NCBI GenBank assembly: GCA_021414225.1
Contig: JAIOOX010000005.1
Span: 1-46,185, forward strand
Direction: 5' to 3'
Origin: Candidatus Vogelbacteria bacterium
GTDB taxonomy: Bacteria; Patescibacteriota; Minisyncoccia; Phycocordibacterales; XYD1-FULL-46-19
Length of the DNA stretch: 46,185 nucleotides
Positions within the stretch are counted from its first letter, which is position 1. Each line of letters starts with the position of its first letter. Below are positions 13,839-46,185 of this stretch, piece by piece. The notes beneath the pieces are model-generated. The model was not told where the DNA came from. It made no database searches and saw only the letters and a list, made by a program, of their open reading frames with translations. The position numbers and the translations under genes were made by a program.

Positions 13839-13883
13839 TGGATGCCATTATATATTGAAAATAGGCCTAAAATCAACCTATAG

Positions 13884-14504
13884 CTACTCAACCTTTAATG
13901 CCAATGGCTGGTATTCAAACTTATCCGAAGGATACACTTTTTTCATATAATCACACACGTGTGGCCACTCCCAAATAATAACTTTTTTATTAGCCACTGA
14001 TTCCATATTTTTCATAGCCATCCTCATATCAGACTCATTGTTTAAAAAATACATCATTACTGCCCGACAAAAAACAACATCCCAATTATTAGAATCTAAC
14101 CATTCGTCAGTAGCACTAACTATATCCACCTCAGAAACAGATAGAGATGAATCACATAAATCTAATAAGTCTCTAGATATGTCGATACCACTAACATTGA
14201 AATGATCTTTTAGTTCGAGCAACAAACGACCATAACCACAACCAACTTCTAAAACACTTTTTGGATTATAGACACTTATAACAGCCACTAATTCTTTTTT
14301 ATTAGGGTTCGTGTGTAAAGGATCAGCTCCACCTTTCCTTTGCCTGTCATACATAGATAGACGATATTTTTTACCATCCTCCTTAACCCAGTAGTATTTA
14401 TATCCTCTAGTGTGGGAAGGTAATCTTTTTATAACAAAAGAACGAAATACTTTTAATTGCCAAAATATACTCAAAATAAACAAACGCAACTTAGCAAAAA
14501 ACAT
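13884..14504 (-). CDS. Class I SAM-dependent methyltransferase
   Basis: Motif I 'VLEVGCGYGRLLLEL' followed by 'VSGIDIS'. Confidence 0.7.
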   Translation of the reverse strand: MFFAKLRLFILSIFWQLKVFRSFVIKRLPSHTRGYKYYWVKEDGKKYRLSMYDRQRKGGADPLHTNPNKKELVAVISVYNPKSVLEVGCGYGRLLLELKDHFNVSGIDISRDLLDLCDSSLSVSEVDIVSATDEWLDSNNWDVVFCRAVMMYFLNNESDMRMAMKNMESVANKKVIIWEWPHVCDYMKKVYPSDKFEYQPLALKVE

Positions 14505-26899: not shown

Positions 26900-26948
26900 A
26901 ATTAGTTCTAGTATAGCGCAGGTTTACTAAGTTAAAAATAGTAATTGA

Positions 26949-28181: not shown

Positions 28182-28371
28182 TCACTTCAGAAACAGTTCT
28201 CAAAAATTCTTCTCGATGTCTAGTTCCAGTAAAACCAAATAAAGCTATAATTGCCCCCAAAATCACAAATAAACTAGTCTTAATCACACTTGGAAAACCA
28301 GTGAAAGGTAGCACAATGATCATCAAACCCAATATCGCGCTAGCTCGGTTGCGCCAAATAATATTATGCAT
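28156..28371 (-). CDS. Small two-TM membrane protein
   Basis: 71 aa with two hydrophobic helices (ILGLMIIVLPFTGF, LFVILGAIIALFGF). It is on the same strand as its neighbours and overlaps the next gene start by 26 nt. Confidence 0.4.
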   Translation of the reverse strand: MHNIIWRNRASAILGLMIIVLPFTGFPSVIKTSLFVILGAIIALFGFTGTRHREEFLRTVSEVSDNNESNQ

Positions 28372-28382
28372 AATGTGTTGGA

Positions 28383-29675: not shown

Positions 29676-29678
29676 ATC

Positions 29679-31037: not shown

Positions 31038-31051
31038 ATTCCTATAGTATA

Positions 31052-31888
31052 GTGAGAATTATGATAAAAAAAGAGCTAGGACCAATTGGTATTTTTGACT
31101 CCGGCTTTGGTGGATTAAGTATTCTCAAAGCAATCACTAAGGAATTGCCAAACTATGATTATATTTATCTTGGTGACAATGCTAGGACGCCTTACGGTAA
31201 TCGATCACCAGAAATAATCTACGAATTCACCAGGCAGGCTGTCGATTTTTTATTTAAAAATAATTGCCAGTTAATCATCTTGGCTTGCAATACCGCCTCC
31301 AGTGATGCTCTACGAAAAATTCAGCAAGAATACCTGCCACAATATTACCCTTCAAAAAAAGTATTAGGTGTCTTAATTCCAGGAGCTGAAGCTGCTGTAG
31401 CTAAAACAAAAAATAAAAAGATTGGAGTTATGGCCACTGAAGGTACTGTAACTTCTGGTTCTTTTGTTAGGGAAATAAAAAAACTAGACTCAACCATTAA
31501 AGTTTTTCAACAAAGCTGTCCTCTGTTAGTCCCCTTAATCGAAGCCGGTGAAAAAAATAATCCAGCCACTAAGATTATTCTGGAACAATATATAAAACCT
31601 CTAAAACAAAAAAAGATTGATACCGTCATCCTGGGCTGCACCCACTATGGTCTAGTAGAAGAGCAAATTAAAAAAATCTTTGGTGACAAAGTTAAAGTTA
31701 TTTCTGAAGGTAAAGAGGTAGCTAAGAAATTAAAAATATATCTTGTAAAACATCCGGAAATAGAAACCACTCTAACTAAAAAATCAAAATTGAGCTTTTA
31801 CTCAACTGATACCACCGCCAAATTTCAGACCCTGGGTAGTAAATTCTTTGGACAGAAAATAAGGGTTGAAAAAGTAAACCTGAATTAA
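31052..31888 (+). CDS. murI: Glutamate racemase
   Basis: 'IGIFDSGFGGLS', 'LACNTAS' and 'LGCTHY' catalytic-Cys blocks. The ORF track starts at GTG 31052; the ATG at 31061 is more likely. Confidence 0.92.
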   Translation: MRIMIKKELGPIGIFDSGFGGLSILKAITKELPNYDYIYLGDNARTPYGNRSPEIIYEFTRQAVDFLFKNNCQLIILACNTASSDALRKIQQEYLPQYYPSKKVLGVLIPGAEAAVAKTKNKKIGVMATEGTVTSGSFVREIKKLDSTIKVFQQSCPLLVPLIEAGEKNNPATKIILEQYIKPLKQKKIDTVILGCTHYGLVEEQIKKIFGDKVKVISEGKEVAKKLKIYLVKHPEIETTLTKKSKLSFYSTDTTAKFQTLGSKFFGQKIRVEKVNLN

Positions 31889-32228: not shown

Positions 32229-33086
32229 ATGAAAAAACCAAATCTTGAGTCTGCTTCTGAAGTCCTACCCTTCTCTATTGAAGATATCTATCCCTTGGCC
32301 CAAGAAAAACTCCAAAGCTACCAAATACGAATGGATAGTTTCTCTGATCTTTATAGCTCAGAGGTAATACTGGCTGACCAAAAAGAAGTGGAAAGACGTA
32401 AAAAAGGATTTGAAATCCATATGACTGACCAAGAAAAAGAACTAAGAAAGCTAGCCGAAGTCTTAGAAGCTATTATTTTATATCACGGAGAACAAAGTAA
32501 TTGGTTTGGTAGTGAAGCAACCCTAACCAGAACAACAGACTACGACGACTTAACCCATGGGACTGACTGTATTATGGAACTAACTAATCCTAATAACACT
32601 TCTCAATTAGCCCTAGCCATTGACGCAACTTTTAGTAGCCACGTTGGAGAAAAATTAATAGAAATATCCAATGAAATAATTAAAGGCGAACTAACTAAAA
32701 TAAAATATTATATTTCTGACCAAGCGGGAATCAGAGGTGAATTAATTAATGTGCCCAGGATTATTGTCGGCTTAGATACTAATTCTATTATGAATATTTC
32801 CGACCTCTGGCTTAATAATGCTAACGAGCACCTAGCTAACCATCCTGCTCAATTTCAGATTTTAGAAGAAATAATGATGCAGTGTGAATTCTTCAGCCGT
32901 TTAGCTATCGCCGAAGATCAGGTAAAAATTGGTGAAATTTACCGAAAAATGTACGAAAAAATTAAAACAATTTATTCAACCAAGAAAGCTGAGGGTAATG
33001 ATAATCACTGGAGGGACAGTTCCCACGCCAACCTAAAACGAGTCTTACCTCAACTGTTCCCCGATATAGCCAAGGAGATGGTTTAG
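32229..33086 (+). CDS. Hypothetical protein (285 aa), no recognisable domain
   Basis: Long AT-rich ORF matching the composition of the left part. TGCTATACT (extended -10-like) ends 10 nt before the ATG. Confidence 0.55.
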   Translation: MKKPNLESASEVLPFSIEDIYPLAQEKLQSYQIRMDSFSDLYSSEVILADQKEVERRKKGFEIHMTDQEKELRKLAEVLEAIILYHGEQSNWFGSEATLTRTTDYDDLTHGTDCIMELTNPNNTSQLALAIDATFSSHVGEKLIEISNEIIKGELTKIKYYISDQAGIRGELINVPRIIVGLDTNSIMNISDLWLNNANEHLANHPAQFQILEEIMMQCEFFSRLAIAEDQVKIGEIYRKMYEKIKTIYSTKKAEGNDNHWRDSSHANLKRVLPQLFPDIAKEMV

Positions 33087-33113
33087 GCAATCAAAGGCAC
33101 ACACCAGGACTCT

Positions 33114-33289
33114 CCCGCGACTTAAGATTTTCTACCGAGTTAATGCCAGAACTCTCGACTACCGTCGCGGGTACTTTTCTGGTTTACTCGCCTATCGGCT
33201 CATAAACAGAGAAAAGTCTTTCTCGTCCTGACGAAAGTGAAGTAGTTCACTTTCTCCATGCGCACAAATTACGCTTCGCTTATTTGTGC
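33114..33289. repeat. Cluster of stem-loops at the compositional junction
   Basis: cccgcgac/gtcgcggg (33114-33121 / 33164-33171). gaaagtgaa/ttcactttc (33233-33241 / 33247-33255, 9 bp perfect). gcacaaat/atttgtgc (33262-33269 / 33282-33289, 8 bp perfect). No ORF >30 codons. Confidence 0.45.
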
Positions 33290-33427
33290 CCCATTACTGA
33301 CCACGACTCGAACTTTTTTGACACGGTTGTTGGAGGTGTTGATGTTGGAGCCGGGCATATGGAAACAGTTTAGGCGAGGTGAGACGGAAAAGAAAGAGGG
33401 GTGAAGTTGGCACGGGAGGCAACAAAG

Positions 33428-35002
33428 CTAGTTTACAGCTTTCTTAATCTGCTTAATTCCCACCTGGTAACCGTACATACTCAGTCGACGGCGTGCATTT
33501 TTCAGACTCACCTTACTGAAAAACGGGATATCTAACGGTTTGTCTGACTCACTAATAATGCCATAGATTACCTCATAGTCCTTCGCATTCGGGGCGGCAG
33601 AGGGATCAGCCAGTTTATGGCCGACCGGTAACTTTACATTCAGCTTCTGGCGGAAATCCGCGTCGCTGACAAAAAGCTCGGCAGAGACGACCCCTTGGGA
33701 AAACAGGTGACTTAATACGTTAGATCCGCCATACCGTTTTATATGTAGGAGTTTATTTTCCCCGGTATAAATGTCACAAAACTCCACACTGCTATGGCCA
33801 CCGCCGTGCATGATTAATTCGCCATCCATACAACAAGCGCCTTTCAAAGCCGCGGCTGCGATGGGTGTGTAGTCACCTTCCCTGGTCACGGTGCATACCG
33901 GCAGGTCAATATCCGATCGCCTGACAGCATCAAAGTGTTCCTGCACCTGCTCGGTGAATCCCTTTGCAATTCGATACCACTTTGCGTTGTTCAGAATGTA
34001 AACATCATCCCGTAACTCAACCTCAGCATACATACACTGAAAAACGGTCCACCGCTCGACAACATCGTCTGTGGCCATGGATATGCGAAATATTGCAGAG
34101 TGCTTAAGTCGCTCCAACGTCACTGGACTGGGTAGCGTCTCCAAGCAAGCTGGTACGTCTAAATCGTCGTGCAAATCGTTGCTCTTTTGACGGGCGTAGC
34201 GAAAGCCTTTTACGTCGGACCACTCAATGACTTCGGGAACAGCCATCCACACTTTGTCTAGTGTCCGAGTATTTAGTTTGTCAACCAGCACAAGATTCAG
34301 TTCTTCTTCGATTTTCTTGTCACGAACTTCGGCAATCTGATCAATCCAATCAAAATCTTTCTTATAGTCTTCGCTCGTATAGCGTTCCAGGCAATGAGTT
34401 AGAAATTCCACGATGTTTCCGACATTAACCTTTGCCGACCCACTTAGTGCATCTTTCCCCGTGATAATGCCCCCGAGAAGAGGGTCACGTGACTTTCCGG
34501 TTACTGAGCTAACCAGGTCTTGCTCAATATCGATTCCGAAATCAGTTGCGGCAACATTCCGGCTCATTTGTTCCTGGCTGTGTTTCGGTACCGATCCTAG
34601 CGTCGTCTTATCGATCTTGCGAAAACTTGCCGCATCAAGTGAATTGAGAACCGTCTTTAAACCGAAACGCTCTTCAAGCACACCGGGCCGTAAGAGGTGT
34701 CGACCAAATCCAAACACCACTGCAAAATACGTCGCCTTCCCGTGTCTCGAAATAGGTACAATCAAAAGCCCCTTCGAGCTGGCGTTTAAGAGGGGCCGGT
34801 CTAGGCTTATAGCATCACCAAAAAAGTCTTTGACCCAGCTCGGAGTTTTGGGAGGCACTGAAGCAGAGACAAAGTGCCCAACTCCATCGATCTCAATCGA
34901 ATTCTTGCTACTCTGGACAATCTCATCCAGTGTTTGGAACTCCGGCTTGATCATGTAGACAGAGTATTTGTTAGTCTTGACTTTTTTCGCATTCATTGAC
35001 AT
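33428..35002 (-). CDS. TIGR04141/DUF6119-like sporadically distributed protein (possible PD-(D/E)xK-type nuclease core)
   Basis: 524 aa. The N-terminal 'YSVYMIK...' opening and the C-terminal block 'VEFCDIYTGENKLLHIKRYGGSNVLSHLFSQG' match my recollection of the family signature (D...hHhK...SHLFxQG). Confidence 0.5.
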   Translation of the reverse strand: MSMNAKKVKTNKYSVYMIKPEFQTLDEIVQSSKNSIEIDGVGHFVSASVPPKTPSWVKDFFGDAISLDRPLLNASSKGLLIVPISRHGKATYFAVVFGFGRHLLRPGVLEERFGLKTVLNSLDAASFRKIDKTTLGSVPKHSQEQMSRNVAATDFGIDIEQDLVSSVTGKSRDPLLGGIITGKDALSGSAKVNVGNIVEFLTHCLERYTSEDYKKDFDWIDQIAEVRDKKIEEELNLVLVDKLNTRTLDKVWMAVPEVIEWSDVKGFRYARQKSNDLHDDLDVPACLETLPSPVTLERLKHSAIFRISMATDDVVERWTVFQCMYAEVELRDDVYILNNAKWYRIAKGFTEQVQEHFDAVRRSDIDLPVCTVTREGDYTPIAAAALKGACCMDGELIMHGGGHSSVEFCDIYTGENKLLHIKRYGGSNVLSHLFSQGVVSAELFVSDADFRQKLNVKLPVGHKLADPSAAPNAKDYEVIYGIISESDKPLDIPFFSKVSLKNARRRLSMYGYQVGIKQIKKAVN

Positions 35003-35198
35003 AGCATACTCTCGCGAGACGCAAATCGCAATACTGCTGCAATCCAGATTCCAATGTAGCGAGTGATGCTATATTTCAACAATTAGTTCAATAAAAAGAC
35101 AATGAAAAACAATTTTAACGAATATTCGGGTCTGGCCCTACAAGCCTACCTCGCCCTGGTCATCCAGATTTACCAGCGTTCCCTCAATACGCCGGACA

Positions 35199-36221
35199 AT
35201 GACCGGTAAGCCTGTGTACTTCGCCTACATCCGCGTCTCCACCCCGCGCCAGGGCGAGCAAGGTTCCTCGCTGGCGGCTCAGCGTCGGAGCATCGAGTAT
35301 TACGCAGCCCGTCACAACATTATGATTTCAGAGTGGATTGAAGAAACAGTAACAGCCGCCAAAGCTGGTCGTCCCCTGTTCACTCAAATGCTGACCCGGC
35401 TCAGAAAAGGCCAAGCTACCGGCGTCATCATCCATAAAATAGATCGGGGTGCCCGCAATCTCAAAGACTGGGCCGCCCTGGGTGAACTCATTGATCATGG
35501 AATAGAAGTGCGGTTCGTCGCTGACTCAGTAGACCTCAGTTCCCGCTCGGGTCGCCTATCGGCAGACATTCAAGCGGTGGTTGCTGCCGACTATGTACGC
35601 AACCTGAAAGAGGAAGCCCGGAAAGGATTCTACGGTCGACTCAACCAAGGGTTGTATCCTTTGGGTGCGCCGTTGGGATACCTCAACAATGGACGGGGCA
35701 AGGTAAAAACCTGGTGCCCGGAGACGGCCCCGCTTGTTCGGCGCGCTTTCGAGCTCTACGCCGCTGGTGAATTCACCCTCCGACAGCTTTCCGCCGAGTG
35801 CTTCAGTCGCGGCTTACGCAACAGTACTGGACATTCCGTTTCCAACAACGCCCTGGCGCGGATACTGCGCAACCGTTTCTATTGCGGCCAGATGGTTCTT
35901 GGAAAAAGCGGTGAGGTTTTCGCAGGCCTGCATGAACCGTTCATCCCGGACGATCTTTTCCGCCGCGTCGGGGCAATCCTAAATGGCCGGATGAGGCGAA
36001 AGGTGAAGTCGCCTTCATTGGTCTACCGCAAGCTTCTCCGCTGCGCCTCTTGCCGTAACCACCTCATCGGCGAGATCAAGAAAGGCCACACCTATTACCG
36101 CTGTCACACGAAGGGCTGCCCGGTAAAGTGTGTCCGCAGCGAAATAATTGACCGGCAGGTCCAGGAAAAGATACAGCGCCTTCAGGCCGATTCAAAGGTC
36201 TACGTCGACAGGCTAAGTTAG
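35199..36221 (+). CDS. Large serine recombinase (resolvase N-domain + recombinase domain + zinc ribbon), apparently C-terminally short
   Basis: 'YIRVSTPRQ' catalytic Ser block, 'IHKIDRGARNLKD', recombinase-domain 'GLYPLGAPLGY' and zinc ribbon 'CASCRNHL...YYRCHTKGCPVKC'. The ORF ends about 45 aa after the ribbon. Confidence 0.85.
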   Translation: MTGKPVYFAYIRVSTPRQGEQGSSLAAQRRSIEYYAARHNIMISEWIEETVTAAKAGRPLFTQMLTRLRKGQATGVIIHKIDRGARNLKDWAALGELIDHGIEVRFVADSVDLSSRSGRLSADIQAVVAADYVRNLKEEARKGFYGRLNQGLYPLGAPLGYLNNGRGKVKTWCPETAPLVRRAFELYAAGEFTLRQLSAECFSRGLRNSTGHSVSNNALARILRNRFYCGQMVLGKSGEVFAGLHEPFIPDDLFRRVGAILNGRMRRKVKSPSLVYRKLLRCASCRNHLIGEIKKGHTYYRCHTKGCPVKCVRSEIIDRQVQEKIQRLQADSKVYVDRLS

Positions 36222-36604
36222 CATCCCAGTAAGAAACTCGTTTACAGCACCCCAGCGCAGCTTTTCAGGCGGGAATCGTTGCACTTTGAGATCGAAGCTG
36301 CGGGCTACAGAGGCTTGCAAGAATTTGCCCACATGCTACTATTACATTGTGTGTTTTTCCATCGCGGAAAATCACGCGGTGGCCTTTCGTGAGAGGAAAG
36401 TCAGAAATCGCATTGAACAGAATTCATGTGATAACTGGCGAATGGGGTGGTCGCCCCGGACCGCTAGCTAAGGATGTACGGAGCATAGACCTTGTCGCCG
36501 ATGTATACCGATGCCGCGGGTGCGCTTACGCACAGTACTTAGAACGATGGGTCATCGGGAGCTGTTCAGGCAAAGAGCAGCTCCCTTATTGGTTGAGTTC
36601 AGGC

Positions 36605-38455
36605 CTATTCCAGCAATGGTAGCATTGGAGAAAGAATATGCTCTAATGCGTATAAGGCATTTCCCGTGGCAATTTGCCGGAATTTATCATCTTTTTCGCA
36701 ATCTGCATGGTCACTCACCCCCCGCACTATAAGATAGGCTTGGGGTCTATATCCATAGTGTAGCTGATCTTCGACAAATTGTTGTGCGACACCGCCTGCC
36801 TCAGTTTCAAGAGCCAACGTCTTATCATTTACGCCATTTAGCCACACTCGCTCCTCCGCCTCTCGGTACCTGATCACGGCTTCCCCAGTGCCAATGGGTC
36901 CAAAATGCAATCGAAACTTTGTCGAATCATCATTAGCGTTGGAATTGAGACAACAGATATCACCCGAATTATCAAAGACGGAATTAATAGCGTTTCTCAC
37001 TATAGGATTTAAATTATACGGCAATAATCTATGCTGAGTGCCTTGCTTAGTCACGACGCGTTTATCATAATAAAAAATATCATCTGCCACGACAACGTCA
37101 CCTATGCTCACATCCTTGTGTATAGATCCGGCGATTCCAACTAATACCATAACCTTTGGGGCAAACTCTTCTGCCAGATCACGATACGCTGGCATTATCG
37201 ACCTATTGCCTTGCTCAAGGGCACGCACGGCGGCTACACTAAATGATTCGCCAGCAGGCAACCTTCCAAATCCTTCGGAATACTTTCGCGTCGAACGTGA
37301 GCCAGCGGCTTCTCCAAACCCACCTCTTTCTTTCAACCAATTCCTTACCATATACATTTCATCTGGAACTACAGTTAGAATTCCAACGTCAACCTTTGGT
37401 CGTCTCGGCATTTCATGAACCCTTTTCGTGCTCTTAGGGGATACTTCGAATTGAACTAGATCGATCATATGGGGAACTAGCGCCCCGATAGAATGCCTCT
37501 CGAGCTCAGACGCTCGAAAAATGCGTTTGCCAAGCTCGATACGAACTTCCCGTTCAATGCCCTTGATATCACCGTCTACAGTACCAGATACCAACATCAA
37601 GGCGGTCGCTTTCGCATAACCGAGTTTAGCATCAAGGAATATGCGTGCCCTCTCCCAAAACGTTGGCCCGAGATAGCTTGTTGAACGATCGCTTCTAACT
37701 AACCGGCCATTACTTGGTAGACTTGAAAACAGTACACACCGAACTACAATATCCGAACCAAGCTCTTCAATCGCCTGAATCGCCATTCTGGTAAGCCAAA
37801 CTCGCGCAAGAGGTCCTGTAGCGCAGATCCAAGCGCCATGCGAAACCACCGTCTCTCCTGGAGGAATTTCGGCTATAATTGCCGTGCGTCCGTTTTTTGA
37901 CTGTCTACGGGCTTTCATACGAATCGCATGTAGAATCCCTCGGAGCCTGCTCCAGTTCGCACCCCGTTGAGCATTTGACGTCACCATATCGACACAAAGG
38001 ACGTTCTCGTAATAGGTCAGCTTTTCTGATTTCCCGAAAACGCTTGCAAGTTCATCAACTTCTCCAAGAATATCCCGCATTTCCCCCAAAGATATTCTCA
38101 TTCTTTCTATTAAAAAGGAAAGAAGGGGAATCCAATCTAACGACTGAGTTCTCAGTCTATCATCCAGTCGCAATGCCGCCTTGTGTAGATTCTTATCGAG
38201 CTGTCCATATAACTCAAGCTCTTTAATGCTAGCATGCATTTCGTTATAGGCGCGCTTAGAGTTTTTATCCTCGTTAGGATATAAAAGCCCTATTTCGAGC
38301 ATGGCTAATACCGTCTTTACTTGAAGCAACCATTTCGCTTGGCGCAGTATAATTGATTCCAAGTTTGTCGCTTTAAAATTGAGGTTCTCCCCAACGATAG
38401 TTACCGGAATCTGGATGCAGCTTGCCGGGGTCAATAATTTTGTCGCAATTCGCAT
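36605..38455 (-). CDS. Two-domain protein: unknown ~345-aa N-terminal domain fused to a C-terminal PNP_UDP_1 (purine nucleoside phosphorylase / MTA-SAH nucleosidase-fold) domain. Putative nucleotide-depleting effector.
   Basis: C-terminal ~270 aa: 'VDVGILTVVPDE', phosphate-loop-like 'MVLVGIAGS', 'ALETEAGGVAQ' and 'IVRGVSDHAD' (nucleosidase-type SD motif). The N-terminal part has no motif I recognise. No obvious SD at the ATG. Confidence 0.75.
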   Translation of the reverse strand: MRIATKLLTPASCIQIPVTIVGENLNFKATNLESIILRQAKWLLQVKTVLAMLEIGLLYPNEDKNSKRAYNEMHASIKELELYGQLDKNLHKAALRLDDRLRTQSLDWIPLLSFLIERMRISLGEMRDILGEVDELASVFGKSEKLTYYENVLCVDMVTSNAQRGANWSRLRGILHAIRMKARRQSKNGRTAIIAEIPPGETVVSHGAWICATGPLARVWLTRMAIQAIEELGSDIVVRCVLFSSLPSNGRLVRSDRSTSYLGPTFWERARIFLDAKLGYAKATALMLVSGTVDGDIKGIEREVRIELGKRIFRASELERHSIGALVPHMIDLVQFEVSPKSTKRVHEMPRRPKVDVGILTVVPDEMYMVRNWLKERGGFGEAAGSRSTRKYSEGFGRLPAGESFSVAAVRALEQGNRSIMPAYRDLAEEFAPKVMVLVGIAGSIHKDVSIGDVVVADDIFYYDKRVVTKQGTQHRLLPYNLNPIVRNAINSVFDNSGDICCLNSNANDDSTKFRLHFGPIGTGEAVIRYREAEERVWLNGVNDKTLALETEAGGVAQQFVEDQLHYGYRPQAYLIVRGVSDHADCEKDDKFRQIATGNALYALEHILSPMLPLLE

Positions 38456-38468
38456 CTATGTTTTATTG

Positions 38469-38509
38469 CACAGCTATCCCATCCATTGAATAATGATGGG
38501 ATGGCTGTG
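38469..38509. promoter_or_regulatory. 15-bp inverted repeat (1 mismatch) immediately upstream of the PNP-fusion gene start
   Basis: cacagctatcccatc (38469-38483) / gatgggatggctgtg (38495-38509) with an 11-nt spacer. It ends 13 nt from the ATG at 38455. Confidence 0.5.
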
Positions 38510-38519
38510 ATCTCTATTT

Positions 38520-38554
38520 ATAAAAAATGCTTGAATGACGGATATCACTCAAGC
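38520..38554 (-). terminator. Probable intrinsic terminator after the 68-aa gene
   Basis: Minus strand GCUUGAGUGA-UAUCCG-UCAUUCAAGC (9 bp, 1 mismatch) followed by AUUUUUUAU. Confidence 0.45.
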
Positions 38555-38579
38555 AAAGGTTGCGAATTGCCCAGCGCAA

Positions 38580-38786
38580 TCAAGCAATCTTGTGCCGAAA
38601 TACACGCTGGAATAGCCCTGGAGGGCGCGTAATGCGTCTCTCTACCTGAACCGGAGAAGGTGTACCCGGAGGTGCAACCATCACCAGTGATTCAACTCGA
38701 TGCCCCTGAGCGTTCTCGCTTATGACCTTAAATGTCCGGTCATCGACGCGTTCGCAATGGAGCGACGACTCATCCTTTTTTGTCAT
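38580..38786 (-). CDS. 68-aa hypothetical protein, translationally coupled to the upstream 2TM gene
   Basis: ATG preceded by GGAG at 7 nt. It overlaps the stop region of 38770..39648 by 17 nt. No recognisable domain. Confidence 0.5.
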   Translation of the reverse strand: MTKKDESSLHCERVDDRTFKVISENAQGHRVESLVMVAPPGTPSPVQVERRITRPPGLFQRVFRHKIA

Positions 38787-39648
38787 TGAGATTCTCCTGC
38801 TTGGGATATTTTTTTGACAGCCATTCGTATACCAACGGGTGTAGAGCAGCAGCCAAGCTTCTTACCAATTGAATATCGTAACGTCGATAAAATGCTTTTC
38901 GGGACCGACTATCTACGGCAAGAAATCCGACAATTTTCTCTTTCTCGCCGCTCAAACGCGGCACTATCGGCGACAGGATGACACTTTGGTATGGTAATCT
39001 CCAAGTCATCCGACGCCGCAACGGATTAAGAAACATTGGCCGATCTTCTTTTGGTTTACCATATACCTCGAACGAGGTATTTTCATAATGCGGTCGTCCT
39101 GGCAAGTCGTCTTCGAAAAAGACTTCCATTTCAGGTTGGCCAACATGCTCAAAAATCCAAAGTAATGCACTATTTTTCTGAAGTGAGTGCCTCACTCTAC
39201 CATGTGCGGCATCTCGATCTTTCGAGTGTGTGCTCCGACACAATGTGACAAACTCTAGATCTGAGCTTTCAGCAGTGGGCTGAACAAATTTGACACATGC
39301 TGCACACTGGGTGCCTGTCAAAACAGTGAATGCTTCGGCGATGAGATTTGTAATCGAGGTAATCGGCTCGGAATTTGCCATCGCTTCGGGTGAGGCGTCC
39401 TGTGCATCAAGGAAAGCGGCCGTCAGCATTTGGAGTGATTCCACATACCGTGCTTTTCTCGAGTAACGAAACTGCTGATAGACCATGACGATGAAAAAAA
39501 GAACTGCGAGTAGTCCAAGAAAAAATATGCCAATGCGAGCGTCGGGTTGTGATTTGGCCCAGACAGCTCCAACTGCCACCATGATCGATATTACGGCGCT
39601 CAAGTTGTTGACTATTGGCCCGAACCACCCCCAAAAACGCTGCATCAA
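38770..39648 (-). CDS. Membrane protein: two N-terminal TM helices + cytoplasmic GAF-like domain
   Basis: TM1 'AVISIMVAVGAVWA' and TM2 'IGIFFLGLLAVLFFIVMVY'. The C-terminal ~200 aa have a GAF-like pattern ('ITNLIAEAFTVLTG...', 'KIVGFLAVDSRSRKAFYRRYDIQLVRSLAAAL'). The likely start is the ATG at 39645. Confidence 0.55.
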   Translation of the reverse strand: MMQRFWGWFGPIVNNLSAVISIMVAVGAVWAKSQPDARIGIFFLGLLAVLFFIVMVYQQFRYSRKARYVESLQMLTAAFLDAQDASPEAMANSEPITSITNLIAEAFTVLTGTQCAACVKFVQPTAESSDLEFVTLCRSTHSKDRDAAHGRVRHSLQKNSALLWIFEHVGQPEMEVFFEDDLPGRPHYENTSFEVYGKPKEDRPMFLNPLRRRMTWRLPYQSVILSPIVPRLSGEKEKIVGFLAVDSRSRKAFYRRYDIQLVRSLAAALHPLVYEWLSKKYPKQENLNDKKG

Positions 39649-39696
39649 GGCATCTCCCCGACAAAAATAATGAGTTCGTGTGTCAAAGATCCAATG

Positions 39697-39831
39697 TTAA
39701 TCCCGCGATTCCTCCAACTCTTCGATTTCCGCGTCAAGCTCACATGCTATCGTTTCAATGTCGTCATCGGAGACATTTTGGTCGATTTCGAAGGTTAGAG
39801 GCGTCTTTGACGCATCTGGAACCGTTGCCAT
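39697..39831 (-). CDS. 44-aa highly acidic micro-ORF at the head of the cassette
   Basis: Hand-translated: MATVPDASKTPLTFEIDQNVSDDDIETIACELDAEIEELEESRD. The SD AAAGGAGG lies 6 nt before the ATG. The ORF ends 48 nt before the 2TM gene and is below the ORF-track cutoff. Confidence 0.4.
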   Translation of the reverse strand: MATVPDASKTPLTFEIDQNVSDDDIETIACELDAEIEELEESRD

Positions 39832-41160
39832 GCACGGCCTCCTTTTGCGGAAATCCTGAAGTTAAAACCCTAGAGAATACCATGCGACGCTGTAGAAGTA
39901 AAGAGCCTCCCTTAAGATACATGCTGAGCATGTATGTGCTTTCACTGTGCGCTTTTTAAAGAACAACGATGCAAATGTCAAGTATTTTCCCCTCGTCACT
40001 TTCGCAACTATCCATAAGCCATTGTATCCCAATATCTTATGGACTTCTAGATTGGGATGTGGATAACAATTGCTGCCCTCTTGTGGGTGCTTTTTTGCAC
40101 CCAAGAGAGCGCTTCGGGTGGGGGCGGATTAGTTTGCCGACACTATCTGTAGTGTTTTGCCTGATCGAGCACGAAAAAGAGTAAGAAACAGAAAACTATC
40201 AAAATGCGTCTATGGTAAAACCATTGACAAAGCAACATCTGAAATTATCAAGCCAGGGTGGCCTATGGCCACATTCGCCTTGATTAGGTGCCGCCCACAA
40301 CACAAAATGCCTTCTAGCCCCGATCCATCGCAAGCCCTACACTTACTAATAAGGGGGGTACGCAATGACTCTCAAAAAGCTCGCTATACCCTTATTTTAC
40401 TTACTCCTTTGGGTGTTGTCTTTTGGGCGAGCGGCAAGTGGGCGGAATAATTTCAGTCCGCCTTTTGGGGCACAACGCTCCGCCGAGCGGCGCGGCAGCG
40501 CCTGAAAAAGCAGGCCATCCTTTTGGGACAGGAGCATTACCGCAACGAAACCGCAATCCAGCCCATACTGATCCGCTTGCCCCTGGGGTATGGAGACAAT
40601 TCCAATGTCCCCGGTTGAGGCATAGACGAAACAATCGTCATGCCTTGGAAAGTTCTGTGAACCAGTTGGACCCAGTACCGGAATTTCTTCTCGCAGTATG
40701 GTGGTCTTTGCCGTCTTGTCGATGAGATCCCCTCCTCGTCGGCCTCGGGGTGCTCACTCGGCCTTCCGTTTGTCGTACTGATCCCAGCCGTTGGCTTTTC
40801 CGCCATGCATCTGCCGCCACAAAAGGCTGAAGGAGAACAGCGACACAGGATGCGTGGATGAATCTCAAATTTGAAGCGGACTTAACGATGAGAAGTTCAA
40901 TGAGATGCTCTAATCCCGGCCATTCCCTTTGCAGAACCAGCAATGCGGTGTTTGAAGCCAGCTCAGCTTTAAACTTGCCGGCCCGTTGTTCGCGCACTTG
41001 CAGTTGCCATTGCGCTTGGACGCCATCAATCGAAGTACGGGGCAGCGTTTGAAAATGCTCCAGTACACGGTCGTGAAGACATCGAAAGGGAGAAGAAAAT
41101 AGCCCATGAACTCCAATTTCCGCGTAGGAAATTAGCGTAACCAAATTCTCTCCGCCCTCA

Positions 41161-41247
41161 TCATGTACAGAGGGCAACAACCGGCTCGCTGGCAAAATCG
41201 GCTTCCGAATAGGTCTCGATAGTCGGCATTTCGTATGGGTTCTTCAT
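41161..41247 (-). CDS. 28-aa candidate RiPP precursor peptide
   Basis: Hand-translated: MKNPYEMPTIETYSEADFASEPVVALCT. The SD GGAGGA lies 7 nt before the ATG, and the ORF has its own near-consensus promoter. It sits directly downstream of the PqqD-like gene. Confidence 0.55.
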   Translation of the reverse strand: MKNPYEMPTIETYSEADFASEPVVALCT

Positions 41248-41272
41248 GACAAATTCCTCCAAAGTTTGCGGA

Positions 41273-41301
41273 ATTGTAGCCTAATATGCAATTGATGTCA
41301 A
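41273..41301 (-). promoter_or_regulatory. Near-consensus sigma70 promoter: TTGACA-N17-TACAAT
   Basis: On the minus strand, TTGACA (41296-41301), a 17-nt spacer and TACAAT (41273-41278). It lies ~25 nt upstream of the 28-aa ORF start. Confidence 0.6.
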
Positions 41302-41376
41302 GCGAAATCCATCGCCTCTCCCACTACTGCGGTACTGGCAGGGCAAGTTGTCAAGACGCTTCAGAAGCACCTCCAT

Positions 41377-41661
41377 CTATTCTAAGCCGCGCATGCAAAC
41401 GCCCAAGCTGTAGAGTTTTTCGAGTGTAACTTGGATGTCCAACTCTAAACGCTCGCGTGGAACCTGCCCGTATCGCTGAAGCATCTGCTCCAACAAGTCC
41501 TCGACAGTTGTCATCCCATCACATTTCTGCCAAATGAAAAAGGCAGAGTCGTTCAAAACGTGCACTAGACCTCCGGCGGCATCGTACAAGGCCCCATCCT
41601 CACCAAATTCATGAACACTCACGTCCGCTCTTCGTCTAGGTAGTCGTTTGGGCTGAAGCAT
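41377..41661 (-). CDS. PqqD-family protein (stand-alone RiPP recognition element)
   Basis: 'VHVLNDSAFFIWQKCDGMTTVEDLLEQMLQRYGQVPRERLELDIQVTLEKLYSLGV' follows the PqqD pattern (LN.ta..iW..cDG..tv.el...l...y.v......D....l..L...g). The ATG at 41661 has the SD GGAGAGG. The ORF track extends to GTG 41676. Confidence 0.75.
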   Translation of the reverse strand: MLQPKRLPRRRADVSVHEFGEDGALYDAAGGLVHVLNDSAFFIWQKCDGMTTVEDLLEQMLQRYGQVPRERLELDIQVTLEKLYSLGVCMRGLE

Positions 41662-41715
41662 CTGTATCCTCTCCACTCAACTTCATGTGTCAACGCAAGA
41701 CATTATGCGTGGCAT

Positions 41716-42051
41716 TTAGCGAGCGGCCATAATGCCAAGGATATCGCGATAAAGACAAATACCAGGCCAGCGATTAGCATCCCCTTTTTCGACACATACG
41801 GGGCCAAAACGCAAGATGAAGCGATGTAGCACTCTCGCACAGCCGCGACGAAAACAGATGACCTCTCCGAACTTGGGCTTCGGATCGAGCGCATAGCGAA
41901 TTTCTACCTCTGAGCCTGGGGGAAGTGTTGGCGACATGCTTCGACCAGTAACCCGCTTCAGCATTGTCTTACGGTCATGTCGCCAGGCTTCTTCGACTGC
42001 CCGTCGAGCTTTGTCGTGATCTCTGGCTGGCAAAGGCACACTATGCTCCAT
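41716..42051 (-). CDS. Soluble S24/S26-family (signal-peptidase/LexA-fold) serine peptidase-like protein
   Basis: 'VTGRSMSPTLPPGSEVEI' (Ser nucleophile box), then 'GEVICFRRG...VLHRFI'. There is no N-terminal TM anchor, unlike true signal peptidases. Confidence 0.6.
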   Translation of the reverse strand: MEHSVPLPARDHDKARRAVEEAWRHDRKTMLKRVTGRSMSPTLPPGSEVEIRYALDPKPKFGEVICFRRGCARVLHRFILRFGPVCVEKGDANRWPGICLYRDILGIMAAR

Positions 42052-42158
42052 CTGGATATTCTATCATCCCTGTAGACATTGGTGAAAAGGCCCAGTTACC
42101 GTGGAACCGCCGAAGAAAGAGATCGGAATGCCAGTGCAATTGCAAACGAAACAAAAAA

Positions 42159-43316
42159 CTACTCATGATATTGCGCCCAAATACTAGACATGTCAATTAG
42201 TCTGTATTCCCCGTCTGGCGCTGGAATCATCTCATGGGCAACAGCAAGGCTCATCTCCGCCGGAAACATCAAGACACTCTGAATCGTGTGATGGTTGCAT
42301 ATACAATTATAGCTCTTCCCATTCTCGCGGCCTGTCGCTCCGTCGTATTTGTCACGCAGAAATCGAAGCGCGGCCTCCGCGCACAGCGCTCCTCGATGTT
42401 CCTCTATCAAGGTGCGCATTCGCGCGTATCGAAAGGTTCCTGCTGAATAGGTAAGTCTATTTCGCGCAGTCTGTGGGCACTGGCAACAATCGTCAACAAT
42501 GAGCGTCCCTCTCCGCGCCGACCTCCAGGCACACAAACTTCGGGTGAACTCAATCGCACCGGCCTCCCCGCTCTTTCCGTCAGCGAGCGCAAGATTATAC
42601 CCACAGGTACGGGGCACATTCTTGACTATTTCCAAAGCATCGGCGAGGTTTCGTGCCTTTTCCAGGACCATTCGAAGCACAATCGAAATCGGTACCCCCT
42701 CAATGTCGCAATCGCTCGCCGGGGTGCTGACTTCAGAGAGCGAAAGCCTAGCAGCACTCATTCCCGTGTACGTCCCAACCATCCCCACAATTGTCGGCGA
42801 TATTGTTGGAAGCAGCGTCTCCGAAGCCGGACTCCGAGCTATGCAAATGCCCACCCTTGCATGGATGTCGCGACCCAACGGAAAATCAAGGTTTCTTCCG
42901 TGTATAAGCCGACCTCTAGTAACGCTTGGAAGTAACACAAAATTGCAACATTGATGCAAGGCTCCCATGTAACAGCCATCGACATCCGCGATGCAGTTCA
43001 GCGCAAGAATGTCGGCATACGGGACCTCGCATCCCTCGGCAATGGCACGCATCTCTTCCAGGTACATCGACGGTATGAAATTCGCGCATCTGGCTGATTG
43101 CTCAAGGAGGAAATGATAAGGAACCCCGAATATCTCGTTACTTCGTCGCACAAAACCATCCACTAGGAGCCCGATCTCATTCTTCAGCAAGCGGCCATGC
43201 TCGTGCCCCATTTCTTCTGGTGTTCCCTCAAGCAGAAGGATCGGTATAGATTCTATTAATTCTAGCGGCACGGAAACGACCACTCCTGCAACAGTGTTCG
43301 GAACACCGGAACTCAA
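42159..43316 (-). CDS. Peptidase C45 / acyl-CoA:6-APA acyltransferase-family Ntn hydrolase
   Basis: 'EGTPEEMGHEHGRLL' N-terminal block, candidate nucleophile 'QCCNFVL' and 'HGRNLDFP'. The start codon is uncertain (the track uses TTG). Confidence 0.65.
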   Translation of the reverse strand: MSSGVPNTVAGVVVSVPLELIESIPILLLEGTPEEMGHEHGRLLKNEIGLLVDGFVRRSNEIFGVPYHFLLEQSARCANFIPSMYLEEMRAIAEGCEVPYADILALNCIADVDGCYMGALHQCCNFVLLPSVTRGRLIHGRNLDFPLGRDIHARVGICIARSPASETLLPTISPTIVGMVGTYTGMSAARLSLSEVSTPASDCDIEGVPISIVLRMVLEKARNLADALEIVKNVPRTCGYNLALADGKSGEAGAIEFTRSLCAWRSARRGTLIVDDCCQCPQTARNRLTYSAGTFRYARMRTLIEEHRGALCAEAALRFLRDKYDGATGRENGKSYNCICNHHTIQSVLMFPAEMSLAVAHEMIPAPDGEYRLIDMSSIWAQYHE

Positions 43317-43534
43317 GAAAAACGAAAGAATTTGATCTCAAAAGCACCAAACCTCTGTAAACGGCATGGACATGAGGCACGATGCGCCGCAAGGGGGGGC
43401 AAGCGAGCAAAACTCTGCTTCGGTTTCCACCAACAGAGTACCATAACCACATCTACTTGACAAGCAAAAATTATTGTGTAATACTGCTCCAGATGTAAGG
43501 TTGCAAGGTCCCGACTTAGGAGGAAGACGTAACT

Positions 43535-44587
43535 ATGTGTCAGTTGCAGGAACTTAAGACGAAGACAGAGTATCGCCAGCAATTCCACTTTATCCTAAGG
43601 GGATTAACCCTTCTCTCCGTCGGCGTCCTATCCCTTCTGGCAGTTGCCCCTGCCTTGGGTGACGTTACAGGCTCACCAGATTGCGCCACAGACCCTATAC
43701 CGGTGAATGGGGATTCAGGATCTGCATATGCTGCGGTGACATTAACGGCTCCAGTGTCCTTGTGTCCTGGAGCATCGAGTGAATTGGTCGCAAGCGGAGG
43801 TGGCGACTGTGACGTTAAGCGAACCACTGGGTGCAGCCCCGCATGTTCTACCTCCTCACGGTGCGGTGCAGACGTGGACAATAGTGATGTCGTTTTCACG
43901 TGGACATCAACAGGATCCTTATCCAAGGATGGCCCAGCAACCGGCACCCTTGAAAACAAGCAGTGGTACAAGACTGATCCCGCAATATGGGGCACTAGCG
44001 GAACTGTCACCGTAAGCAGGGATGAGGCTTCGCACGTGGACGAAGGCAGCGTTCATACTGACACTGAGACGATTACGATAAGCACGCCACCACTCACAAG
44101 CTTTGCGAACCATAAACATGTTGATGCGTCCTCGCCCGGCGACCTTACCGCTAAATTCAAGAGTGCAAGCAGCGATTTTTACTTGATGGATAATGATGGC
44201 CACACCGGAACAGCGGATATACACTGTTGCATTGGCCTTCAACCTTCTGGAAGTCTCGCCAGCTTTGGAACAGCAGGTGACGGCTTGGACGTGATTGACA
44301 ATGACGGCGAGAAAGATGCCGTGTTCGCAGTAGGTAGTGGGGCAAAAATAAAGTGGGTGACAACAATTAATACCTGCGGCGGCATGCCAGGAAGTTATTC
44401 CGGTTGTGCAATGACCGCATACCACGCCCGAAACGCCATTATCAAAGTGGCAGCCTCAAATTCGACGATTGCACACGAATTTGGGCATACTGAAGGTGGT
44501 CTTGGACATGTACCTGCTCCAAACATAATGCAAACTCCCTCTGGTGCGGGCGAATTTACGTCTACCCAGTGTTCTAGCATGTTTTAG
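43535..44587 (+). CDS. Secreted protein with a C-terminal metzincin-like zinc-metalloprotease motif
   Basis: Signal/TM segment 'LTLLSVGVLSLLAVAPALG'. The middle region is Cys-rich. The C-terminus has 'IAHEFGHTEGGLGHVPAPNIM' (HExxH...G...H then a Met-turn-like IM). The third His is one residue further than in canonical HExxHxxGxxH. Confidence 0.55.
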   Translation: MCQLQELKTKTEYRQQFHFILRGLTLLSVGVLSLLAVAPALGDVTGSPDCATDPIPVNGDSGSAYAAVTLTAPVSLCPGASSELVASGGGDCDVKRTTGCSPACSTSSRCGADVDNSDVVFTWTSTGSLSKDGPATGTLENKQWYKTDPAIWGTSGTVTVSRDEASHVDEGSVHTDTETITISTPPLTSFANHKHVDASSPGDLTAKFKSASSDFYLMDNDGHTGTADIHCCIGLQPSGSLASFGTAGDGLDVIDNDGEKDAVFAVGSGAKIKWVTTINTCGGMPGSYSGCAMTAYHARNAIIKVAASNSTIAHEFGHTEGGLGHVPAPNIMQTPSGAGEFTSTQCSSMF

Positions 44588-44648
44588 CTGCATATTTCAT
44601 GAGAGAGTTCACAATTGCTATCAACTTAGCCCAAAAGGAGGCGCTGTC

Positions 44649-45434
44649 ATGAGCACGTCACATTATGTTCTTCGCGGAAGACATGAGGTTTCTTTAAATG
44701 TATACATCTTGTCGATCTGCGTTTCCTTGACCCTTTTCATCGCAAATGCAACCGCAGATTCTACGTTTGATTCCATAAAAAGCGACGCTTTCTTGGAAGA
44801 ACTAACTCGGATCGCCCAACCGCCGTGTGAATTTCCCAGTGCAACGGAGTCTTTCTTTGCTGTATTTGGGCGCGATTCGAACACCGAGACGGCGCTCCTA
44901 AGCGTGCTGAGAGATGAGAGTTCCGATTTTTACGCGCGCCGTCTGACGGTTTGGGCATTGACAGAACTTGGTACGGACGCGGCACAGACTGAACTAACAA
45001 AGTTTATCGAGGCACCCTTACCCAGCAGCCTTCCAGAGGGTACAACGTTGGAGCAAAGACTGGATGTGCTTCGTACAGGCATTATGTACTTGGGCCGCAT
45101 TAAGAATTCAAGCCTTTTACGCCAACTCGAAAACTGGTCTTCAGGAGCGTATTGGGATAGCCGTGCTGATTTTCAAGTTGCCGGAACCCAAATCATGACT
45201 ATGGAAGCTTCTCAGCGCGAACGCATCATTGCGGGACTACGTGAAGCGGCGTTATTGAGCATAACTTGGCAAGCATCCTCCGAAGCCGTCGCGCTGGTCG
45301 AGCGACTTGTGGGCACCACTTGTAACGACATGCATCCAACTGTACTCGGCAATATTGTGAATGAAGCACGTTCCAAGGCGGGTATTACTAATACCGCAGA
45401 ACCGACTTCCAACACTACTGCTGAACTTCCTTAA
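44649..45434 (+). CDS. Hypothetical exported/anchored protein with HEAT-like helical repeats
   Basis: The ATG at 44649 has the SD AAAGGAGG 7 nt upstream, whereas the track ORF starts at 44544 inside the previous gene. Hydrophobic 'VYILSICVSLTLFIANA'. Confidence 0.5.
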   Translation: MSTSHYVLRGRHEVSLNVYILSICVSLTLFIANATADSTFDSIKSDAFLEELTRIAQPPCEFPSATESFFAVFGRDSNTETALLSVLRDESSDFYARRLTVWALTELGTDAAQTELTKFIEAPLPSSLPEGTTLEQRLDVLRTGIMYLGRIKNSSLLRQLENWSSGAYWDSRADFQVAGTQIMTMEASQRERIIAGLREAALLSITWQASSEAVALVERLVGTTCNDMHPTVLGNIVNEARSKAGITNTAEPTSNTTAELP

Positions 45435-45475
45435 AGCATGCTCATGCGCCCAACAAGTGAGCTATAGAGCTGTCG

Positions 45476-46078
45476 ATGAAATCTCGCTTAGCATCAAGCA
45501 TCAAGTTCGTGTCTATTTGCCTTCTACTAGGAGGCGTATTCTGGGCGCAACTTGCACGAGCAACAAACTTTGCAGGCGAAATAATCCGTATCGTCAGAGA
45601 ACCAGAGTACATAGCGGAATCACTTTCGCCAAGTCTGTTGGAATATTTCCGCGAGTTCCAAGCGAGCCAGGAGAGACAAGATCTCGACGGGGCATTGCGT
45701 GCTATTCAGCGACTTACTACCGAATTGACCGCCGAACCTACGTCTGATGCCTACACTTACTGCATGGGCTATCGTGCGCTGTTAGAGGAAACTGCTAATC
45801 GCCACAGCGAAGCGATTCAAACATTGGAGCGCTTACGTACAGCGAGATCGGATTTACAAGGTATCGAGATTCGGTATCTGGCAGATCTCGAAGTTGCGAG
45901 AATAATGTTGGATAATGGCGGCAACCCGAATCTGCCCGATTTCACACCTAGTTTTGAGGATGTCTCCGGTGCCGTAAATCGTGTGTTCTCAAATTATGAC
46001 GCTTATCAGTATGACGTCATTCTTATGCATGTAAAGTATGCCAATGATGTCATTGAGAAGGGCATCTTCTGGCTGTAA
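45476..46078 (+). CDS. Hypothetical secreted helical (TPR-like) protein
   Basis: Signal peptide 'FVSICLLLGGVFWAQLARA'. 200 aa of helical-repeat-like sequence. The 3' ~90 nt overlap the antisense Dam-like fragment. Confidence 0.45.
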   Translation: MKSRLASSIKFVSICLLLGGVFWAQLARATNFAGEIIRIVREPEYIAESLSPSLLEYFREFQASQERQDLDGALRAIQRLTTELTAEPTSDAYTYCMGYRALLEETANRHSEAIQTLERLRTARSDLQGIEIRYLADLEVARIMLDNGGNPNLPDFTPSFEDVSGAVNRVFSNYDAYQYDVILMHVKYANDVIEKGIFWL

Positions 46079-46183
46079 CCCTAACGTGATCGCAAGGCCG
46101 CCACAGAACGGCTCGACAAGACGGCGCTGGGCATGACGGGCAAAAATTGTACGAAGGTGCGGGAGAAGCCAGCGCTTCCCTCC
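45989..46183 (-). pseudogene. N-terminal fragment of a Dam-type (D12 class) N6-adenine DNA methyltransferase, entering from the window edge and stopping after 64 codons
   Basis: Hand-translated minus frame: GGKRWLLPHLRTIFARHAQRRLVEPFCGGLAITLGLQPEDALLNDIIGILYMHKNDVILISVII*. 'GGK..LL', 'LVEPFxGG' (motif I) and 'LNDI' are the conserved N-terminal Dam blocks. No DPPY region follows. Confidence 0.5.
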
Positions 46184-46185
46184 GA

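Follow-up and report, generated by a model that had tools for sequence, protein, structure and literature searches.

What is a PqqD-family recognition element for peptides that are made on ribosomes and modified post-translationally (RiPPs) doing in a gene cluster that holds no recognised maturase? This question is raised by a 46,185-nucleotide stretch of a Candidatus Vogelbacteria contig (JAIOOX010000005.1, positions 1 to 46,185; hereafter the window), in which five consecutive minus-strand open reading frames (ORFs) span 40.6–43.3 kb. Four of them had been described in a first-pass annotation as standing in a row, and all four were found where it had placed them: genes for a C45-family N-terminal nucleophile (Ntn) enzyme, a small soluble protein of S24/S26 peptidase fold (hereafter S24L), a PqqD-family RiPP recognition element (RRE) and a 28-residue peptide. 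The fifth, an HprK-related P-loop remnant immediately downstream of the peptide gene, had been missed. On balance, the region probably represents a pared-down version of an RRE-dependent, RiPP-like peptide-maturation system that is conserved but uncharacterised and occurs mainly in uncultivated Hydrogenedentota-type bacteria. The system is a candidate for a new RRE-dependent RiPP class, present here in a reduced form.

Loci of C45 orthologues were fetched, and each was searched with profiles of every component. The clade at or above 39% identity (39–51%) comprises about 11 independent loci from metagenomes or metagenome-assembled genomes (MAGs), the window being included in the component counts; of the sources that bear a name, two are Hydrogenedentota (L002, L083) and one is an FCB-group MAG (L003). 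PqqD lay within 10 kb of C45 in 9 of these ~11 loci (window, L002, L003, L033, L083, L084/85, L088, L089, L090). S24L was present in 6 (window, L002, L084/85, L088, L089, L090) and so was the peptide (window, L033, L083, L084, L088, L090). The set of C45, S24L, PqqD and a small ORF is thus seen in independent loci, so that the lack of recurrence named in the first-pass annotation as a ground for refutation was not observed. Gene order is fluid, and the window arrangement is the most compact.

The fuller system has two further components. An HprK-related P-loop protein of ~310–340 aa was encoded in 10 of the 10 other independent loci that could be checked, with TIGR04352 as its best NCBIfam match. 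A nucleotidyltransferase (NTase) accompanied it in nearly all, either PF14907 (L002, L033, L083, L086, L088, L090) or PF00483 (L003, L084/85, L089). The earlier view of an RRE teamed only with two hydrolases is therefore not supported: what remains of it is a recurrent orphan RRE system without known maturases, while the three-enzyme scheme falls and the window copy proves incomplete. An ABC exporter was found in L033 and L088, and further frequent genes in the orthologous loci encode a family-1 solute-binding protein and DUF1573 proteins.

Canonical maturases were looked for in the window by a Pfam/NCBIfam scan of ORFs of at least 90 aa at 205–14504 and 25112–46078, which left out ~14.5–25.1 kb. 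These parts contained no radical SAM, lasso B2 or lasso cyclase gene, and no Asn-synthase-like or transglutaminase-like gene. Among the orthologous loci, lasso B2 (PF13471) and cyclase (PF00733) were absent from the Pfam lists of L083–L090, and Pfam lists with extra scans revealed no radical SAM gene within ±10 kb in L083, L084/85, L088, L089 and L090. The claim that no radical SAM or lasso B2/C partner is present thus extends from the scanned window parts to most orthologous loci. Because the gene set recurs, the PqqD profile passes, the peptides carry a YxxPxΦ motif and no radical SAM, B2 or cyclase gene lies nearby, the region does not look like a broken canonical cluster, in agreement with the first-pass annotation. 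PADLOC gave no defence-system match for any cluster gene, and Rfam and tRNA scans of the window were empty.

Table 1. Features of the candidate peptide-maturation region in the window.
Feature	Position	Strand	Basis
C45 proenzyme gene	42159–43316	minus	Longest ORF 385 aa; NF040521, PF03417
S24L, small soluble S24/S26-fold peptidase, 111 aa	41716–42051	minus	AlphaFold2 (AF2) and Foldseek; invariant motifs
PqqD-family RRE, 94 aa	41377–41661	minus	PF05402
Sigma-70-like promoter before the peptide gene	41273–41301	minus	Consensus match only
28-residue precursor peptide MKNPYEMPTIETYSEADFASEPVVALCT	41161–41247	minus	ATG and GGAGG; homologues in five loci
HprK-related P-loop remnant	40638–41144	minus	Profile match and alignment

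The peptide gene of the window starts with ATG; GGAGG lies 8 nt upstream, and still further upstream stands TTGACA-17-TACAAT, an 11/12 sigma-70-like match that is one of consensus only; the 28-codon ORF with promoter and Shine-Dalgarno sequence (SD) was in this sense confirmed. Homologous ORFs were found in five other loci, and all six copies have an ATG plus SD. The aligned peptides are MKNPYEMPTIETYSEADFASEPVVALCT (window), MKPYEAPTIETFDEQEFRADVAEALCT (L088), MKKYEAPRIETHDEAEFLSDVALASGSC (L084), MTYQAPKVESFEVEEFESDVALALCSVCENNEV (L033), MANLPNYEPPKVVTYDEQEFVADDLKAICS (L090) and ..KITYEKPAFETIPEEEFFEKQVANVVSCQC (L083). Such a recurrence of homologous small ORFs is far more than expected by chance. 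The peptides are small and acidic and follow the pattern Y-E-x-P-x-Φ-E-T…EF…A-Φ-C-S/T, in which Y, P and F are invariant: the Y-E-x-P-x-Φ-E-T motif stands at the N-terminal end, (D/E)-F lies in the middle, and a conserved Ala is followed by a short tail at the C-terminus. The tail always holds a Cys adjoining Ser or Thr (LCT, LCT, ICS, SGSC, LCSVC.., VVSCQC).

Two elements of this layout have counterparts elsewhere. By its motif, the YxxPxΦ segment resembles the leaders that lasso B1 RREs bind. Fifteen residues past it, a small residue precedes the tail (VVA↓LCT, AEA↓LCT, ALA↓SGSC, ALA↓LCS.., LKA↓ICS), in an arrangement that resembles an AxA signal-peptidase site. A lasso reading of the window peptide, with Thr12 at −2 and a Ser14–Glu8 ring, was rejected: the pattern is not conserved in the five homologues, and neither the scanned window parts nor the loci listed with Pfam contain B2/C genes. 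The L088 and L084 peptides have Asp at the would-be lasso core position 1. A peptide profile search of a 5.8-billion-protein set, in which peptides of ≤28 aa are mostly not called as genes, returned only three already known peptides.

The PqqD-family protein scored 53.1 bits with PF05402 against a gathering cutoff of 23.4, so the assignment made for this ~94-aa protein holds; an alternative GTG start at 41676 would give 99 aa. It fell below the cut-off of every named subfamily: ScmD (TIGR04248) 36/100, PqqD 29/46, HPr-rel-A (TIGR04353, PqqD_rel_X) 26/35 and lasso 18/70. A profile of 8 orthologues matched PqqD structures in the PDB (5sxy, 3g2b) and the lasso B1 proteins TbiB1/TfuB1 (5v1u, 6jx3). 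The single-sequence AF2 model was weak (pLDDT 64) and gave the order E-E-E-H-H-H, i.e., beta3-alpha3; its top Foldseek matches were TbiB1/TfuB1–leader complexes and PqqD (TM ~0.6, E 0.06). The VLN/CDG motifs are kept in the window protein.

S24L was below threshold for Pfam S24 (PF00717, 16.7 vs. 23.3 bits), and its weak NCBIfam matches, TIGR02228 (18.5 vs. cutoff 51.9) and TIGR02754, were far below the family cut-offs. Its AF2 model, built with 11 homologues, reached a pLDDT of 92.3, and the best Foldseek neighbours in the PDB were all of S24/S26 fold (SpsB, LexA, lambda cI, UmuD', SipA, human SPC). A hydrophobic segment was looked for and none was found (max KD19 0.76); hence the protein has no membrane anchor, and both the fold and the solubility assigned to it earlier were borne out. 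Residues G36-x-S38-M39 and H76-R77 are invariant among the homologues. Since the HR pair falls on the KR box of SpsB in the hidden Markov model alignment, S24L is predicted to have a Ser38/His76 pair instead of Ser/Lys. The Ser/His arrangement is that of the endoplasmic reticulum and archaeal-type S26 enzymes. S24L shares the S24/S26 fold, the GxSM motif, a His predicted to stand in for the bacterial Lys general base and a small size with the NiSOD maturation protease SodX, which serves a dedicated single substrate, and with archaeal/SipW-type Ser/His signal peptidases, the families behind its two weak NCBIfam matches. Unlike these, it has no signal-peptide substrate and no membrane anchor, and its genomic partners are an RRE, a kinase and an NTase.

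The close clade of small soluble S24L proteins is rare, with 8 representatives at E ≤ 1e-30 in an exhaustive profile search; the wider family has 899 representatives at E ≤ 1e-10 (representatives being taken at 50% identity). Within the wider family, S24L is fused to PF14907 in P0128 and P0154 and to an HprK-like P-loop domain in P0193. These fusions parallel the NTase–B2 fusions of lasso clusters and thereby support a peptide-maturation reading; by this analogy, S24L is a candidate leader peptidase. The wider family also holds a fatty-acid hydroxylase fusion (proteins noted: P0128, P0154, P0193, P0125, P0129). A distant member, P0049, belongs to another cluster, in which PqqD and a 41-aa ORF are joined by two DUF455 proteins and an Asp/Arg hydroxylase.

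The C45 protein scored 156.3 bits (cutoff 85) with NF040521 (C45_proenzyme), a model described as 'C45 family autoproteolytic acyltransferase/hydrolase', and 50 bits with Pfam AAT (PF03417). Every orthologue alignment begins at the GTG at 43271 (MPLEL...), so this is probably the real start, giving a protein of 370 aa. With this correction, the C45/IAT-family assignment of the 385-aa ORF was upheld. Cys123 and H139-GRNLDFP-146 are kept in all 19 aligned homologues, and the profile of this alignment matched P. chrysogenum IAT (2x1d, E 1e-13) as well as NAAA and acid ceramidase. The nucleophile Cys103 of IAT is the residue with which Cys123 aligns, and HGRNLDF pairs with QGQNWDF of that enzyme (Asn/Asp oxyanion motif). 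The two proteins thus have in common the C45 proenzyme family, the Ntn fold, an aligned nucleophile Cys and an N-x-D motif. The model for the proposed C45 role is IAT, an enzyme that works on the N-acyl group carried by a nucleus derived from a Cys-containing tripeptide. It differs in that the window protein is only ~20% identical to it, is bacterial and stands in a ribosomal-peptide rather than non-ribosomal context, with no beta-lactam genes.

There are ~20 C45 orthologues at 35–51% identity, every one from metagenomes or MAGs. Profile searches around distant homologues (22–30% identity; Bdellovibrionota, Spirochaetota, Planctomycetota; L004–L030) gave no partner genes. In a sister subclade (L035–L041, 35% identity to the window protein), C45 is the last gene of an operon that runs ECF sigma, 43-aa ORF, two ranthipeptide/SCIFF-like radical SAM/SPASM maturases and C45; the 43-aa ORF ends with ..TAV(L/Y)(T/V)CC. 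The C45 clade is peptide-associated in two different architectures. Given this radical SAM–C45 operon on one side and the S24L fusions and the PqqD locus of P0049 on the other, C45 and S24L are each independently tied to peptide-maturation contexts.

Two further observations concern C45 relatives. The sister operon (e.g., L038, 5295–11116) resembles a separate RiPP-like operon; its ECF sigma bears a DUF7351 zinc-ribbon tail and its 43-aa ORF ends with ...IDIGPDVTAVLTCC. In L084 (12544–15165) and L089 (12541–15099), a PhoPQ_related (PF10142) protein of ~850–870 aa with a second, C-terminal C45-like domain (...GTPEEMGLAHGRLLKEE...) shares the locus with the stand-alone C45.

The HprK remnant of the window comprises the N-terminal third of the protein, matching profile positions 25–103 of ~317; the C-terminal ~170 aa are missing and the Walker A motif reads AADAWRKS vs. 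GATTSGKTT. A frameshifted but complete kinase was rejected as an explanation: tblastn and profile searches in all frames of 38.4–41.3 kb recovered the N-terminal part only, a C-terminal match in another frame being not significant (E-value 0.39). No further system remnants were found in this interval, and an NTase is absent from the window, with no detectable remnants. The ~1 kb at 39650–40640, which lies between the kinase remnant and a gene for a 292-aa membrane protein, contains no ORF above 100 aa, no homology to the system, no Rfam family and no tRNA. The four core genes are intact and all their invariant residues are kept. The window thus carries a reduced version of the system, which may be in decay.

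The closest characterised analogues are the kinase/NTase-tailored lasso clusters (paeninodin, pseudomycoidin and the Sphingobium yanoikuyae type). Lasso leaders carry a YxxPxL motif that is bound by the PqqD-like B1 (PMC10368454). In some pathways the precursor's C-terminal Ser receives a phosphate from an HPr-kinase homologue, an NTase adds hexose to this phosphate, and fusions of NTase to the B2 leader protease have been reported for some clusters (PMC8498205). The present system shares with them a stand-alone PqqD-like RRE and a short precursor with a YxxPxΦ leader motif. Its complete versions also contain an HPr-kinase homologue and an NTase, the peptide has Ser/Thr at or near its C-terminus, an ABC exporter occurs in some loci, and the NTase may be fused to the leader peptidase, which is B2 in lasso clusters and the candidate S24L here. 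The differences lie in the maturases and in the core. In place of the B2 transglutaminase-like Cys protease and the Asn-synthetase-like cyclase, both absent from the scanned window parts and from the loci listed with Pfam, the system has an S26-like peptidase with a predicted Ser/His pair and a C45 enzyme of the Ntn type, and only 3–10 residues follow the conserved Ala. Across the six peptides neither Thr(−2) nor the Gly/Ala/Ser/Cys1...Asp/Glu7–9 pattern is kept, and a macrolactam lasso would therefore be unexpected.

Some NCBIfam systems that have been named yet not characterised come close in other respects. HPr-rel-A (TIGR04352/TIGR04353) and SynChlorMet (ScmC/ScmD with the radical SAM proteins ScmE/F) pair a PqqD-related chaperone with an HprK-related or ScmC-like P-loop protein, and their models are the best NCBIfam matches of the window PqqD and of the orthologous kinase-like proteins. 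The kinase-like proteins reach at most 49.7 vs. 200 with TIGR04352 (HprK_rel_A) and 17 vs. 125 with TIGR04249 (ScmC), and the present system has no ScmE/F genes.

Three identities were accordingly rejected: membership of HPr-rel-A/SynChlorMet, all scores being far under the curated cut-offs; a lasso cluster, with B2 and cyclase absent from scanned ORFs and loci and the precursor core pattern not conserved; and a radical SAM RRE-dependent RiPP (PQQ, mycofactocin, sacti-/ranthipeptides, SCM), the maturase being present, among the window parts and loci scanned, only in L086 (8 kb away) and the sister L035–41. The enzymology, called undescribed in the first-pass annotation, had no counterpart in the libraries searched, and the literature searched held nothing relevant on a PqqD, C45 and S24-like combination.

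A route through the complete system can be proposed from these likenesses. PqqD would bind the YxxPxΦ segment as a beta-strand, as lasso B1/PqqD do, and present the peptide. The HprK-like enzyme would then phosphorylate a Ser or Thr of the tail, and the NTase would extend the phosphate, as for paeninodin and pseudomycoidin; by analogy with these, the Cys-adjacent Ser/Thr is a plausible kinase target. S24L would take the role of lasso B2 and cut at the AxA-like site (V-V-A↓L-C-T here), releasing a Cys-containing core of 3–10 residues. The IAT-like C45 might finally hydrolyse or exchange an N-acyl or aminoacyl group on this core, resulting in trimming or N-acylation. The roles of S24L and C45 were assigned in this way because the RRE/kinase/NTase trio joins S24L and C45 in place of B2 and C, and because S24L is sometimes fused to the NTase or kinase. 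Leader removal combined with N-acylation or transpeptidation of a very short core, as first suggested for the window, is a plausible but conjectural scheme. The kinase/NTase step is lost in the window, which would therefore yield at most an undecorated product.

Several points weigh against a conserved peptide-maturation system. The peptide was not found in the fetched DNA of L002, L003, L086 and L089, nor S24L in L003, L033, L083 and L086, where contig ends limit the view in several cases. The closest C45 orthologue (L031/32, 51% identity) has no PqqD, S24L or peptide within the fetched range and adjoins glycosyltransferase genes. Every homologue comes from metagenomic data, and L001, whose DNA is that of the window itself, gives no independent support. 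The window copy itself lacks an intact kinase and an NTase, two otherwise near-universal components. The roles given to S24L and C45 are ones that we infer.

The losses in the window allow another explanation, that the system is real and this copy is a non-functional relic decaying on a mobile island, its pathway inactivated when the kinase C-terminus and the NTase were lost. The HprK-like gene, truncated to about half its length and with its GxxxxGKT motif turned into AADAWRKS, the missing NTase with ~1 kb downstream devoid of coding potential, and the placing of the cluster in a 50%-GC segment of an otherwise 36%-GC genome, beside DUF6119, a serine recombinase and a PNP effector of defence type, are all in its favour. 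We nevertheless hold a relic to be unlikely, if a serious contender: the four core ORFs are intact and keep C123, HGRNLDFP, S38/H76 and the PqqD VLN/CDG motifs, the peptide retains a near-consensus promoter and SD, and kinase/NTase modification is tailoring, not core, in the lasso analogues (PMC8498205).

Much less probable is a broken or split canonical RiPP cluster, in which a radical SAM/SPASM or lasso B2/C maturase is encoded elsewhere in the genome or just past the end of the contig and C45 and S24L are accessory proteases only. The best NCBIfam match of the window PqqD is ScmD of a radical SAM cassette, below threshold; the L090 kinase-like protein weakly matches ScmC; a radical SAM gene lies ~8 kb upstream in L086; the sister C45 subclade directly follows two radical SAM/SPASM genes; and the window stops 2.9 kb beyond C45. 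Set against this are the scanned window parts and the ±10 kb surroundings in five orthologous loci, which had no radical SAM, Asn-synthase-like or transglutaminase-like gene, and the three genes past C45, which are encoded on the opposite strand and do not accompany the system in other loci. The lowest probability, a very small one, goes to a role outside RiPPs, with C45 and its partners acting on an envelope lipid or glycan similar to the lipopolysaccharide core and the small ORF encoding a regulatory or structural micro-protein. A cell-envelope role is conceivable because a GT30-like (Kdo-transferase-like) gene often directly adjoins C45 (L031, L083, L086/87, L090), with a fusion to PF14907 in L086, and GT9 is present in L083. 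Moreover, those C45 relatives whose structures are solved (IAT, NAAA, acid ceramidase) act on acyl-amides and not on peptides, and L031/32 have C45 but no PqqD, S24L or peptide. Yet PqqD-family proteins are, to our knowledge, known only as peptide-binding chaperones. In 6 loci the peptide, with its RRE-type YxxPxΦ motif, is found together with PqqD or S24L; unrelated clusters again combine S24L-like genes with PqqD and small ORFs; and the ABC exporter of L088 adjoins the peptide gene.

A bolder proposal can be made, which taken as a whole we consider rather doubtful. The system would be a new RiPP class in which a PqqD-bound scaffold peptide donates only its last 3–10 residues, a C-terminal Cys-Ser/Thr tail; this tail would be cut out by a soluble Ser/His peptidase of the S26 type, and an IAT-like Cys-Ntn enzyme would re-acylate or trim it to a small N-acyl thiol peptide. 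Full systems would add phosphate and a sugar or nucleotide, and the ~900-member S24L family would mark a large unexplored group of pathways. S24L would then be the first S26-fold leader peptidase partnered with an RRE. New RiPP chemistry is found in RRE clusters that lack a recognised maturase. In the literature searched, neither C45 Ntn nor soluble Ser/His signal-peptidase-like folds were ever tied to RiPP maturation; here several uncultivated lineages encode both, together with a PqqD chaperone and a precursor that is conserved. Should C45 and S24L process the peptide, they would be a new class-defining enzyme pair, the task of the 'B2' leader peptidase would have a second solution by a non-homologous enzyme, and ribosomal peptides would be linked to IAT-type acyl exchange. 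The complete clusters of L088 (7121–15607) and L090 (2966–8671) are compact enough for direct synthesis.

The GC-content of the window is ~36% at 1–33000 and ~50% at 33000–46185, with a jump at ~33 kb. The cluster lies in the 13-kb segment of 50% GC, and orthologous loci have 48–64%. This segment opens with DUF6119 (33428–35002) and a large serine recombinase (35199–36221), followed by a 616-aa PNP_UDP_1 protein (36605–38455) that matches the PADLOC PDC-M60C/PN-superfamily effector; it looks like an integrated island. A chimeric assembly behind the GC jump was rejected, as an independent Logan contig (L092) spans the 33-kb junction. No Logan contig bridges 37.5–40.3 kb and L001 is the same DNA, so the link between recombinase and cluster comes from the window assembly only. 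In L088 (2257–6721), a tyrosine integrase, a helix-turn-helix/M78 pair and ThiF/Multi_ubiq/BubE genes adjoin the orthologous cluster, which suggests carriage on mobile or defence islands. With the recombinase-bearing GC island here and the integrase and Bub-like genes beside L088, the system looks horizontally mobile.

Beyond C45, a divergent 350-aa protein is encoded on the plus strand at 43535–44587, with a signal-peptide-like N-terminus and a HEFGH motif near the C-terminus; from these motifs it may be a secreted Zn-metalloprotease. It had no Pfam/NCBIfam match, and other loci of the system do not conserve it. At the other side of the GC jump, a low-GC polysaccharide locus (25112–31888) contains genes for a TrwB/HerA-like ATPase, a DUF4015 glycosyl-hydrolase-like protein, two Mur-ligase paralogues and a Glu racemase, an unusual grouping whose product may be a peptide-decorated glycan.

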